From IMG/VR virus record IMGVR_UViG_3300045988_047700, positions 1 to 53,542 of that record: a DNA stretch of 53,542 nucleotides, one strand, 5' to 3'. The stretch's first letter is position 1. Each line of letters begins with the position of its first letter. This stretch comes from a virus. This document shows positions 34,644 through 52,484 of the stretch, one piece after another. The translations under genes were made by a program, and so were the position numbers. The notes below the pieces were generated by a model that saw nothing but the letters and a program-made list of their open reading frames with translations, did no database searches and was not told where the DNA came from.

Positions 34644-34731
34644 TCGGGACACACGGAATCGAACCGTGGACATAAGTCTTTTTTTAAAAGAGATGATTGT
34701 GACTTTTGTTCTACCATTGAACTATATCCCG
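34644..34731 (-). ncRNA. tRNA-like element with an aberrant anticodon region
   Basis: Acceptor CGGGATA / TGTCCCG. D arm GTTC-AATGGTA-GAAC. T arm CACGG-TTCGATT-CCGTG. AAGTC and GACTT are separated by 22 nt instead of a 7-nt loop. No encoded CCA. Confidence 0.5.
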
Positions 34732-50293: not shown

Positions 50294-50923
50294 TTATTTA
50301 CCTCTTTTCCTTTCCGTCAGTTCTTCTCCGAACGACTTAATCTTTACAATGTTTCCTGTACATTCTTCCGGTACCTGTCCGTAAAATAGTACTGTCTCAG
50401 GTTTCAATCTTTTCAGCATCTCATTATATCCGTCCACGAACAGTGCTTTCCGCTCCATACTATTCATCACTCCGACACTGGATACTGCTACAGCACCGCC
50501 TACCGGCTCCCCGTCAAAACACCACTCAAACGATTCTCTGTCACTCCAACTGATGGTAGGCATCACATCAATACCGTACATCTGCATATATGCACCTATC
50601 CAGTGTTTGCGGAAGTGGTTGTAAATCTGTAATGCTTTTGGAAAATCAGTATAAGTGCTAAAATCCGGCGACATGATAAATCGAAACTGAGAAAGCATGT
50701 TTATGTAAGCATCTGGCTTATTCCATAATCTTTGGAATTGGTAATCGTCAAGAAAGAAATGCACGCCTTTCCCGGCTCTGTCTTTGCATGTCTTAGCTTG
50801 GTTAAATCCAATAAACTCGCACGGTTCATACTTTGTAGGTTGTATCTCTGGTATTCCGAACTCATTTACAATGTCGAATATCATTCGTTGCTGATTCTCA
50901 TAATTCATATTTTCTTTATACAT
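50294..50923 (-). CDS. DUF4417-like protein
   Basis: ATG 50923 after GGGAGGTG. VHFFLDDYQFQRLWNKPDAY...SPDFSTY pattern. Confidence 0.6.
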   Translation of the reverse strand: MYKENMNYENQQRMIFDIVNEFGIPEIQPTKYEPCEFIGFNQAKTCKDRAGKGVHFFLDDYQFQRLWNKPDAYINMLSQFRFIMSPDFSTYTDFPKALQIYNHFRKHWIGAYMQMYGIDVMPTISWSDRESFEWCFDGEPVGGAVAVSSVGVMNSMERKALFVDGYNEMLKRLKPETVLFYGQVPEECTGNIVKIKSFGEELTERKRGK

Positions 50924-51017
50924 AAAAATAGCACCTCCCACGATAATTACATCTTACCGTCAGAAGTGCTATTTCATTGTCCCCGTTATTTAGTTTTATT
51001 TCTATTTTGATACTTAT

Positions 51018-51046
51018 ATTTTACCATAAAATGCACATTTTTTCAA
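51018..51046 (-). promoter_or_regulatory. Sigma-70-type promoter for the DUF4417/terminase operon
   Basis: Minus strand: TTGAAA (51046..51041), 17 nt, TAAAT-like TAAAAT (51023..51018), with an upstream TG. Confidence 0.5.
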
Positions 51047-51078
51047 TGTTTGGTTGCTCTATGTTCATTTCTTTGATA

Positions 51079-51107
51079 TTGACTTTTTATCTTTTTTAGA
51101 TTAATAT
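51079..51107 (+). promoter_or_regulatory. Near-consensus sigma-70 promoter of the small-RNA gene
   Basis: TTGACT (51079..51084), 17 nt, TAATAT (51102..51107). Back-to-back with the minus-strand promoter 32 bp away. Confidence 0.55.
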
Positions 51108-51159
51108 ATATCTATCAGCAATCTTTGTTGATTCTCACGGCTCCATGATTTTCGTGAGT

Positions 51160-51195
51160 GTCGTTCCAGTCAATGGTGGAACGTTGAGTTGAAAG
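51160..51195 (+). CRISPR. Solitary type I-C-like CRISPR repeat unit (single copy)
   Basis: GTCGTTCCAgtcaatggTGGAACGTTGAGTTGAAAG has a 5' GTCG, a 7-bp hairpin and a tail ending TTGAAAG. Canonical I-C repeats read GTCGC-hairpin-GTGGATTGAAAC/T. Confidence 0.45.
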
Positions 51196-51227
51196 ATGTT
51201 AGAATTTAAGAAGAAATTCAGAATCTA

Positions 51228-51254
51228 GGTATAGCTTTTAGCTATGCCTTTTTT
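51228..51254 (+). terminator. Rho-independent terminator of the small RNA
   Basis: GGTATAGC / GCTATGCC (one G-U pair) plus T6. Overlaps the last codons of the convergent cas8c-like gene. Confidence 0.7.
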
Positions 51255-52093
51255 CTTTCATATTCTTTTACCCATTTCTTGTATTCTTCCGGCAATTCTT
51301 CTTGATCCTTTAAAATCTTATATGCCCAAGAATCACCCTCGTAAATCATGAATTGTAATGTGTGAATAATTTTCTGAGACGCAATGTACCCAGGCGCTAT
51401 CGTTGGCATCCCGTCCAATTGCTTCGGTGTTACCATAAATAATTTCGTTTGATCTGCCGGATTGCGAATCCCCTTAGGGTACTTGTCTGGTATATAATCT
51501 GGTTCTCCTGTAATTCCGCAAATACCATTCTTCTCGAGTGTAGAAATATAATAATCTCTCCACTGCGTGCTTATAGTTCCTCTATCCATTAATCCGGCAT
51601 AGACTACTTCATCCCTATATCTCGAATTAAAAAGCATATGTGTCTCTTCCTTGGTTAACACAGAAAATATTATCATAAGTTTTTCCTCTGATGTATCTAA
51701 TTTTTCAGAAACTGGTTTGATATCATAGCGTATAGTTCTTTTGCTCAAGTATTGATATGTGCTCTTCGCTACCGGGTCATCTACGCTTTCTATATATTTC
51801 CTCAACTGCTCCATATATGCTGTATGACGGTTTTTATATTGTGGATAGTCTCCGCATACATATGACATATTGTCGTGAATCGGGTGTGGCGCTATCCCAG
51901 ATGTCCTACTTTCTGAATTGATCGTACACGGGATGGAGCACCTTTCGTTCTTCGTTGCTGTTGCTCCAATGAAATTTCCATATGCATCTATCAAAACTCT
52001 GACATCTGGTCTTATTCTGATATGTGCAATCGGAATAACGCTTTCCACTCCAAGTATTTCATATTGTTTTAAAATTTCGTTCCATTCGCTCAT
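51242..52093 (-). CDS. Orphan Cas8c/Csd1 N-terminal-half homologue
   Basis: 283 aa from ATG 52093. MSEWNEILKQYE..., IPCTINSESRTSGIAPHPIHDNMSYVCGDY (compare Csd1 vP..kRTSGIAPnfLwDn.eYvLG) and GICGITGE (compare G.C..TGE). Full-length Cas8c is about 600 aa. Confidence 0.6.
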   Translation of the reverse strand: MSEWNEILKQYEILGVESVIPIAHIRIRPDVRVLIDAYGNFIGATATKNERCSIPCTINSESRTSGIAPHPIHDNMSYVCGDYPQYKNRHTAYMEQLRKYIESVDDPVAKSTYQYLSKRTIRYDIKPVSEKLDTSEEKLMIIFSVLTKEETHMLFNSRYRDEVVYAGLMDRGTISTQWRDYYISTLEKNGICGITGEPDYIPDKYPKGIRNPADQTKLFMVTPKQLDGMPTIAPGYIASQKIIHTLQFMIYEGDSWAYKILKDQEELPEEYKKWVKEYERKKA

Positions 52094-52103
52094 TTTTCCC
52101 ACT

Positions 52104-52484
52104 TTATGCAATTTCAATCACTTCTGCTTCTTCAACAATTACTTCGTTTTCGTCATTCCCATAAGAGTAAGAATCCCCACCGATTATTACAATGTTGTTT
52201 CCATCGTAGATAGATGATTCTTCAATAGCTCTTTCGATTATCTCTTTTGCTTCTTCTGCATCATCAGTGTCAATCAGTTCAAACATTGCGTATCCACATA
52301 TGCCGTCCATTTCCTCTGGTTCTTCTGTGTCATATGAACTGCACTCATATTCTTCATTCCACTCAAAGCTGTTTCTGCAAATGTCACCAATTTTATATTC
52401 TTCATCCGGGCAGCAATGGCGAATTGCTACCACACTATAATCATTTTCTTTAATTGTTTCTAAGATTTTTTCTACATTCATCAT
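52104..52484 (-). CDS. Highly acidic early protein
   Basis: 126 aa, Asp/Glu-rich throughout. AGGAGG 8 nt upstream. First gene after promoter P1. Confidence 0.6.
   Translation of the reverse strand: MMNVEKILETIKENDYSVVAIRHCCPDEEYKIGDICRNSFEWNEEYECSSYDTEEPEEMDGICGYAMFELIDTDDAEEAKEIIERAIEESSIYDGNNIVIIGGDSYSYGNDENEVIVEEAEVIEIA

Follow-up and report, generated by a model that had tools for sequence, protein, structure and literature searches.

Two kinds of viral RNA that resemble the guide RNAs (crRNAs) of CRISPR systems have already been described, the Racr RNAs in 2023 and the Cracr RNAs in 2024-26. RacrIC1, encoded next to AcrIC5, is a solitary type I-C repeat unit proposed to act by competition for Cas subunits (Camara-Wilpert et al., Nature 2023, PMC10651486); the solitary repeats listed there are mostly near-identical to host repeats, many at 90-100%. 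Cracr RNAs are viral crRNA-like regulatory RNAs, with I-C examples, that often lie beside anti-CRISPR genes; they came to light by their similarity to host CreR/CreA, and they match a cas or creT promoter at 9 or more positions proximal to the protospacer-adjacent motif, PAM (Liu and co-workers, bioRxiv 10.1101/2024.10.29.618823). Hosts encode crRNA-like RNAs as well, and those of type I-C repress Nezha, Gabija and other defence genes (bioRxiv 10.1101/2024.12.27.630466). On the protein side, AcrIB3 is a Cas5 homologue and AcrIB4 a homologue of the Cas8b C-terminus, and Katz et al. (bioRxiv 10.1101/2023.06.24.545427) list 358 orphan viral cas genes. The locus analysed here lies in the window, which is the whole length of the 53,542-nt IMG/VR record IMGVR_UViG_3300045988_047700, numbered from its first letter. 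It is a phage genome, with small and large terminase, portal and other genes on the minus strand as judged by Pfam and PHROG matches. On its plus strand, at 51079-51255, it carries an RNA unit made up of a promoter-like site, two leader hairpins, a degenerate I-C repeat (psiR), a spacer-length segment (psiS) and an intrinsic terminator. This unit is very probably a type I-C crRNA mimic with an anti-CRISPR role.

If so, phages of Lachnospiraceae, which are abundant in the human gut, would join those with RNA-based anti-CRISPR, as would the compact type I-C among the systems affected, one that genome editing makes use of, and the locus would be a new instance of phages turning look-alike CRISPR parts against CRISPR immunity. 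The sole cas-like neighbour of the unit is an orphan gene for a truncated Cas8c homologue, and the crRNA look-alike together with this protein would be a concrete case of a phage pairing a protein mimic and an RNA mimic of one complex. Repeat finders that work by identity would miss a psiR this divergent, and RNAs of the kind are therefore probably under-counted.

In layout the unit agrees with the Cracr RNAs: psiR, psiS and terminator are phage-encoded behind a predicted promoter of their own (CracrVA1 also has a rho-independent terminator), the same plan is found in three further sequence families (B, C and D, the window belonging to family A), and families B and D have the seed-only conservation of Cracrs. 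It differs from them in the 8-nt loop and deviant tag of psiR, in a conserved two-hairpin leader and in a psiS of full spacer length, whereas I-F Cracrs are shortened; neither similarity to CreR/CreA nor a match of at least 9 nt to a cas or creT promoter was found for the window unit in the I-C loci sampled. In context it agrees with the Racr RNAs, which are likewise solitary I-C repeat units in phages or prophages, with their own or a shared promoter, by a candidate or known anti-CRISPR gene; here there is one repeat-like sequence in a viral genome beside the Cas8c-like gene. Unlike them, its psiR is only about 72% identical to a Lachnospiraceae repeat (which may not be that of the phage's own host) and is absent from the published SRUFinder list in its accessible part; the unit also keeps a spacer-length body and a terminator hairpin, and its seeds look constrained. 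The experimentally mapped host I-C crRNA-like RNAs have one psiR that is cut by Cas5c at its 3' base and an 11-nt tag, and they end within a 3' hairpin, the very shape predicted for the window unit; they are chromosomal, located between cas3 and cas5c and assigned to promoter targets, whereas the window unit is viral and no such target was found for it. The Cas8c-like protein resembles AcrIB3 and AcrIB4 in being an orphan viral homologue of a Cascade subunit, in making up an old clade distinct from the true Cas proteins, and in its proposed action as a faulty subunit. It differs in corresponding to the N-terminal, PAM-reading half of the I-C large subunit instead of the Cas8b C-terminus and in being a candidate only; recurrent linkage to a crRNA-like RNA is not described in the accessible portion of bioRxiv 10.1101/2023.06.24.545427. 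What is new is the divergent psiR, the conserved structured leader and, it appears, the recurrent pairing with a viral Cas8c N-terminal homologue.

Anatomy of the RNA unit

The unit lies between a DUF4417 gene and the Cas8c-like gene, both of which are borne out by Pfam (E = 1.3e-60 and 1.6e-19, respectively). The gap between them measures 300 nt (50942-51241), not the 318 bp of the original prediction, which had been made from the letters alone; the elements claimed there are all present, in place or displaced by no more than 1-2 nt.

A consensus scan recovered the predicted sigma-70-like promoter at 51079-51107 (+), with TTGACT (51079-51084) and TAATAT (51102-51107) separated by 17 nt. Both hexamers are retained across all family A relatives, and most family D units have a TTGACT/TTGATT box and a -10-like hexamer at the promoter region with a different intervening sequence. 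About half of the relatives (L001-L003, L010-L012, L014 and L016) have a 17-nt indel directly upstream of the -35 box (window about 51074). Transcription would start near 51114, where leader hairpin 1 begins (51114-51132, +; ATCAGCAA-tct-TTGTTGAT); this hairpin, present in both the minimum free energy and the centroid fold of the leader, had gone unmentioned before. It is followed by leader hairpin 2 at 51134-51158 (+), which pairs CTCACG with CGTGAG around a conserved loop motif, CCATGATT. The entire unit folds with z = -4.0, its leader as three consecutive hairpins.

The 36-nt psiR occupies 51160-51195 (+; GTCGTTCCAGTCAATGGTGGAACGTTGAGTTGAAAG) and consists of a 5' GTCG, a 7-bp stem (51162-51168 / 51177-51183), an 8-nt loop (51169-51176) and a 12-nt tail (51184-51195), the last 11 nt of which, TGAGTTGAAAG at 51185-51195, are the predicted 5' tag. 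A generic I-C repeat pattern (GTYG, a perfect 6-8-bp stem, a loop of 3-9, 4-7 nt and TTGAAA) occurs once in the window and is present in only 2 of 300 dinucleotide shuffles. The 32-nt psiS follows at 51196-51227 (+; ATGTTAGAATTTAAGAAGAAATTCAGAATCTA). Its predicted fold of -2.8 kcal/mol (z = -0.1 against shuffles) is no better than chance, in keeping with its description as unstructured; psiR, as had been claimed, and psiS are each single-copy in the window even with 3 mismatches allowed. An open reading frame had been denied to the unit, and strictly this does not hold, as psiS (51196-51228) can be read as a 10-codon ATG..TAG frame (MLEFKKKFRI), yet that frame has no Shine-Dalgarno sequence. 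An unrelated phage gene begins with the same 19 nt as psiS (MLEFKKRGIDIQLFAEG...; L166 3798-3817 and L167 11065-11084), probably by chance.

The terminator, presumed to be the 3' hairpin of the mature RNA, lies at 51227-51255 (+; AGGTATAGC-ttt-GCTATGCCT, then T6). A terminator scan places its hairpin of 9-10 bp at 51227-51249, directly before TTTTTT, as predicted, and reports no second terminator-like site within 50500-51700. The hairpin overlaps the stop codon of the convergent Cas8c-like gene and is conserved in relatives, where its changes are G-U-compatible (TATAGC to TATGGC); on the minus strand no T-run follows it. An Rfam search of the unit at gathering and permissive thresholds returned no family, and a BLAST search of the region against GenBank phages and plasmids returned no match.

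Conservation, covariation and host

A search with the Cas8c-like protein yielded 74 IMG/VR loci as relatives. Sixteen of these (90-98% protein identity) retain the entire intergenic unit at 92-99% identity, and psiS is almost invariant in the relatives of family A. Altogether the RNA unit is kept in about 30 related gut phage contigs and in one prophage. The prophage copy (L075) lies in a 113-kb metagenomic contig, adjoining murD-ftsW-ftsZ-spoIIGA-sigE; the FtsZ of this contig is 85-88% identical to proteins of Faecalicatena, Dorea, Merdimonas and [Clostridium] hylemonae, which places the host in the Lachnospiraceae, by this measure near Dorea and Faecalicatena.

A further IMG/VR scan with the 3' half of psiR gave 36 contigs, comprising the family A RNA gene and its sister family D, and 13 distinct sequences from both families were aligned for covariation analysis of leader hairpin 2 and the repeat stem. 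In these two stems 98% of the cells are paired and six pairs are changed on both sides; none of 500 shuffles equalled the observed covariation score, and pairing falls to 30-51% when the partners are slid by 1-3 columns. The paired cells, the two-sided changes and both controls identify the locus as an RNA gene and not a pair of terminators. That the hairpins are only bidirectional terminators was one of the conditions under which the original prediction would have had to be given up; the covarying stems and the minus strand without a T-run speak otherwise. The predicted 6-bp hairpin, leader hairpin 2, keeps all six pairs in the 13 sequences, four of them changed on both sides, and the changes in the psiR stem include A-U to G-C at the top pair. 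The covariation of leader hairpin 2 is between family A and family D (window 51134-51158 against L249, L250, L256, L276 and L279), and its loop CCA(T/C)GATT is kept. We know of no role for a structured leader in Racr or Cracr RNAs.

Resemblance to type I-C repeats

A canonical I-C repeat is 32-33 nt long, with a 5' GTCG, a stem-loop whose loop has 3-5 nt and a tag of 11 nt that closes with ATTGAAA(C/T). Of the I-C architecture claimed for the 36-mer, GTCG, the stem (7 bp) and the terminal ..TTGAAAG are found; its length of 36, its 8-nt loop, its 12-nt tail and its tag (GAGTTGAAAG, not GGATTGAAAT) deviate, and on this comparison the most fitting name for psiR is a degenerate repeat.

Genomes scanned with a permissive pattern gave I-C arrays in Blautia, Faecalicatena, Hungatella, Enterocloster, Mediterraneibacter, Merdimonas, Roseburia and further Lachnospiraceae, with repeats that are GTCGTTCCCCTTGCGGGAACGTGGATTGAAAT or a near variant and carry GTCGTTCC..GGAACGTGGATTGAAAT. 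Similarity of the 36-mer to the repeats of arrays in candidate hosts, proposed as a check on the original prediction, is partial: psiR is identical to GTCGTTCCCCTTGCGGGAACGTGGATTGAAAT in 26 of 36 aligned columns (although the compared repeat may not be the phage host's own) and has the 5' GTCGTTCC and the 3' stem GGAACG in common with these repeats. The resemblance does not extend to the loop, which is larger (8 nt), or to the tag, and the tail is 1 nt longer (12 vs 11). The I-C repeat of L289 (GTCGAGATCC..TGGATCTAAAT), a locus whose full-length Cas8c is among the nearest to the phage family, was also compared and is unlike psiR.

Solitary near-canonical I-C repeats with a short segment and then a terminator hairpin behind them were seen in four bacterial contigs as well (L092, L103, L147 and L159; genomes of Lachnospiraceae, Luteolibacter, Lientehia and Faecalibacterium). 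The segment is about 28-32 nt in L092 and L159 and shorter in L103 and L147. Either crRNA-like RNAs with a regulatory role in the host or copies of such units in prophages may be at hand.

Sister families and linkage to the Cas8c-like gene

The plan of psiR, 31-38 nt and terminator is found in four sequence families, three of which adjoin the Cas8c-like gene, each in another geometry. In family A, that of the window, the unit is convergent with and directly downstream of the gene, and psiS has 32 nt. In the 12 loci of family B (48-53% protein identity) it shares the strand of the gene and precedes it by about 390 nt, as GCRTCAGAC-loop-GTCTGTGAGTTGAAAA, 31-34 nt and a terminator, with two such units each in L028 and L065. 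Family C (L050 and L051) is divergent from the gene and consists of GTCGTCACAGAC..GTCTGTGTGGATTGAAAT, 32 nt and a terminator; its repeat, GTCGTCACAGACagcaaaccGTCTGTGTGGATTGAAAT, is fully canonical. Family D has the leader and psiR (GTCGTTCCgatcaatggcGGAACGTTGAGTTGAAAA) as in the window, joined to other psiS segments of 37-38 nt and other terminators, and no Cas8c-like gene. The spacer-like distance from tag to 3' hairpin in all four families argues that the RNA is measured by the Cas7 backbone. The three further families, together with conservation, covariation and repeat similarity, support the structural reading of the original prediction, namely a stand-alone unit with an I-C-type repeat, a spacer-length segment and a terminator hairpin in the place of a 3' handle.

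Within about 500 nt of the Cas8c-like gene, 30 of the 74 loci have an RNA unit, in three unrelated families and geometries; no other convincing unit was found elsewhere in the 74 loci. This recurrent linkage of a viral Cas8c fragment to crRNA-like RNAs appears to be new and was the least expected result of the analysis. The linkage is not obligate: about 14 phage contigs carry the family A RNA gene without a Cas8c-like gene, the gene never accompanies a family D RNA, and 44 of the 74 Cas8c-like loci have no RNA unit nearby. Because each occurs without the other, the two parts are separable, like ordinary co-located anti-defence genes. AcrIC5-RacrIC1 and AcrIF24-CracrIF, separable anti-defence modules that tend to co-locate, behave in the same way.

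The Cas8c-like protein

The orphan gene at 51242-52117 (-) encodes a homologue of the N-terminal half of Cas8c, with 291 aa from a TTG at 52117 or 283 aa from an ATG at 52093, and is a candidate anti-CRISPR gene. Its product matches the Pfam family Cas_Csd1 (PF09709, E = 1.6e-19) over profile positions 5-206 of 559. Its 71 close homologues are without exception short, with 236-333 aa in all but one, which has 464 aa. A PDB search with the single sequence gave no match, whereas the profile and fold searches succeeded: the family profile matches Cas8c of D. vulgaris (8dej_I, residues 67-190), and with the AlphaFold model (predicted local distance difference test, pLDDT, 77; predicted template-modelling score, pTM, 0.75) the sole significant Foldseek matches in the PDB are five Cas8c chains, each with probability 1.0 and TM of at most 0.63 over 274-280 columns.

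In an exhaustive profile search about 30 short clusters scored 152-366 bits and full-length Cas8c proteins (595-685 aa) at most 141 bits, the latter being aligned over roughly their first 240-300 residues only. Identity to the Cas8c of Lachnospiraceae loci is 24-31%. Judged by these scores, the family is an old, separate viral clade. The protein covers the half of Cas8c in which the residues that read the PAM are found (N72 and Q212 in D. vulgaris) and has no C-terminal Cas11-like helical half; no further cas genes surround it. It is most likely a second, separable anti-I-C factor, which would act as a faulty large subunit without the Cas11-like half.

Proposed mode of action and alternatives

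The length of psiS, counted from the tag to the 3' hairpin, is 32 nt in family A, 31-34 nt in B, 32 nt in C and 37-38 nt in D, and in B and D its first 11-17 nt are conserved. The seven psiS variants of family B have ACATT-TTG-A in common; their first 12 nt vary at positions 6, 10 and 12 only, after which they diverge. The five variants of family D have ATAT--TTATA in common and vary at positions 5, 6 and 12, with TTG kept at 15-17 before they diverge. Positions 6 and 12 are bases that are flipped out and unpaired in type I guide-target duplexes. Were three variable sites to fall anywhere in 12 with equal chance, the probability of their including both 6 and 12 would be 10/220 per family. The variation at these positions in B and D favours seed-directed binding of the kind known from Cracr and CreR RNAs. 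Between families the seeds differ little: A has ATGTTAGA, B has ACATTATT and D has ATATTATT.

On balance, we regard the unit as a viral crRNA-like RNA of the Racr/Cracr type that probably loads the host I-C Cascade and binds through its seed. Transcription, processing by Cas5c, Cascade loading, inhibition and the target are what we infer from the sequence, as follows. The unit would be transcribed from its own promoter into an RNA of about 140 nt. Host Cas5c would recognise the psiR hairpin and cut at its 3' base, so that a tag of about 11 nt (TGAGTTGAAAG) would precede the 32-nt body, with the terminator hairpin as surrogate 3' handle. As the body has spacer length, a full Cas5c-Cas7c backbone could assemble on it, and its assembly would draw Cas subunits off the host crRNAs. 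Most likely, the first 11-17 nt of psiS would then park Cascade, without cleavage, on a short PAM-flanked host site, for which a cas promoter or 5' untranslated region (UTR) is our best guess. If binding is seed-directed, the common seed motif may mark a conserved regulatory site.

Several results weigh against this proposal. The psiR tag, TGAGTTGAAAG, differs from the host tag, TGGATTGAAAT, at 3 of 11 positions and belongs to a tail of 12 nt, not 11; among relatives the tag is variable (GTTGAAAG, GTTAAAAG and GTTAAAAA). In family A psiS shows no variation and the seed argument rests on B and D, so that it reaches the window only through the homology of leader and psiR with family D. The target searches were negative. 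About 175 I-C loci were assembled for them, 86 from genomes, 80 from gut metagenomes (via Cas5c) and 8 further ones (via the nearest full-length Cas8c). No TTC with at least 9 seed nt occurs in 167 I-C loci (1.55 Mb) and the 8 further ones, a sample that probably does not include the true host, and there is no match to the window seed upstream of 53 distinct cas3 genes. The 2.9 million viral contigs of IMG/VR hold no match to the window psiS with a TTC PAM, and GenBank phages and plasmids hold no significant match. No host-encoded counterpart of tag plus seed was found outside ordinary array spacers in the sampled host loci, which lack those of the phage host itself.

The current lead starts from the seeds of A, B and D, whose reverse complement together with the PAM complement reads TAA(C/T)(A/G)TGAA. 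Two unrelated I-C lineages of the gut (L168-L183 and L289-L291) have the 11-mer AATAATATGAA at a distance of 25-26 nt upstream of the start of cas3; read on the other strand it is a TTC PAM followed by 8 nt identical to the family D seed and 1-3 nt away from the B and A seeds. In L168-L183 it overlaps a TTGACA-17-TAATAT promoter, and in L289-L291 it falls in the 5' UTR beside the ribosome-binding site. These two sites are two of only four distinct occurrences of AATAATATGAA in about 1.6 Mb of host loci. TTC + 8 nt is too short to be called a target, yet its position is the one expected. For family A the corresponding sequence (TCTAACATGAA) is absent upstream of the 53 distinct cas3 genes.

A pure decoy of the Racr type, which would soak up Cas5c, Cas7c and Cas8c in non-targeting or aberrant complexes and for which only the length of psiS would matter, is an unlikely but not a negligible explanation. 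The broad target searches that found nothing, the spacer-length spacing retained in four families, a psiR that is divergent and not copied from a host regulatory RNA, and the precedent of RacrIC1 beside an Acr gene would all suit it. Its difficulty lies in the seeds: a spacer that mattered by length only would not give the conserved 11-17 nt and the variation at 6 and 12 that families B and D show, and there is a mutual likeness among the A, B and D seeds.

It is improbable that the viral Cas8c N-terminal half replaces host Cas8c on the viral-RNA complex, the phage thus supplying both PAM reader and guide. Such a chimeric Cascade would be a Cas3-blind DNA binder, maybe with a non-TTC PAM, that silences host or rival genes and starves the host of functional Cascade; similarly slight is the chance we give to this consequence. 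The gene lies close to the unit in 30 of 74 loci and in three geometries, its product covers the PAM-reading part (N72 and Q212) without the C-terminal domain, and a different PAM would explain why TTC-flanked targets are missing. The searches without a PAM constraint, however, also gave no convincing target, and the parts are separable, with the RNA gene in about 14 contigs that lack the Cas8c-like gene, a family D that never has it and 44 of 74 Cas8c-like loci without a nearby RNA.

The classical form of the other suggestion in the original prediction, a single-spacer mini-array that would use host Cascade and Cas3 to exclude rival phages or plasmids (superinfection exclusion), is very improbable. 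The protospacer with a TTC PAM that was to be looked for in phage, plasmid and host sequences did not appear; no full or near-full protospacer exists in the 2.9 million viral contigs, GenBank phages or plasmids, and the sole 19-nt match, flanked by AGT, is no more than chance would give. Viral mini-arrays are known, psiS has spacer length, and L028 contains two repeats and two spacers; the window, on the other hand, has one repeat only, which is degenerate, and a psiS that is fixed across relatives, with seeds common to the families, is unlike an acquired spacer.

That the unit is unrelated to CRISPR, being terminators or a regulatory small RNA of the phage with an I-C likeness by chance, is scarcely credible: the deviation of the tag from the host consensus, the position of the terminator at the end of a convergent gene and the missing Rfam family are outweighed by an architecture that only 2 of 300 shuffles reproduce, covarying stems, the canonical GTCG...TGGATTGAAAT repeat in the same layout in family C, the link to a Cas8c homologue and a minus-strand hairpin without a T-run.

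Other candidate sites and I-C spacers against the phages

Wider searches for a target of psiS, with any pyrimidine at -1 against IMG/VR or with a degenerate consensus of the A, B and D seeds, found none. Individual candidates were rejected. A TTC with 11 of 12 nt in L244 lies inside the cas3 coding sequence. In L213 (about 986-1025), AAA+ATGTTGGAATTT stands about 90 nt upstream of cas3 and agrees in 11 of 12 nt with the mismatch at position 6; it has no PAM, is not conserved (sister loci have an indel) and is probably due to chance. A hairpin, GTCCAATTTATTGGAC, follows this site and is also present upstream of cas3 in another species (L245, about 7471). The 19-nt match in L166/L167, the only long one, is at a gene start, and a 10-nt match in L225-L231 is 5.5 kb upstream of cas5.

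Some spacers of I-C arrays partly match phages of this group, a sign that I-C exerts selective pressure on them. One in L151 agrees with clade A in 24 of 29 nt and one in L174 with clade B in 28 of 35 nt, both with a TTC PAM. A spacer in L165, a mouse-gut Clostridiaceae I-C array, matches the DUF4417 gene (window 50498-50531) in 28 of 34 nt and relatives in 30 of 34; its mismatches lie at intervals that are multiples of three, as if the spacer had been acquired from a related phage. Going by these partial identities, the spacers hit relatives of their true protospacers and are not exact matches.

Neighbouring genes and other features

The DUF4417 gene (50294-50941, -; Pfam and PHROG matches) is on the promoter side of the RNA gene. 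It is missing from the prophage copy in L075 and therefore does not belong to the unit. A gene for a strongly acidic protein of 126 aa (52104-52484, -) lies upstream of the Cas8c-like gene, overlaps its start by 14 nt and has no convincing family; a PHROG search of the neighbouring small acidic proteins returned no function. In phages without the Cas8c-like gene the acidic 126-aa gene directly adjoins the RNA gene, and it is possibly a further anti-defence gene. Elsewhere in the window, in which ARAGORN reports no tRNA, Rfam matches a tRNA at 34644-34731 (-) with 50.9 bits and a 23-nt insert after the anticodon stem.

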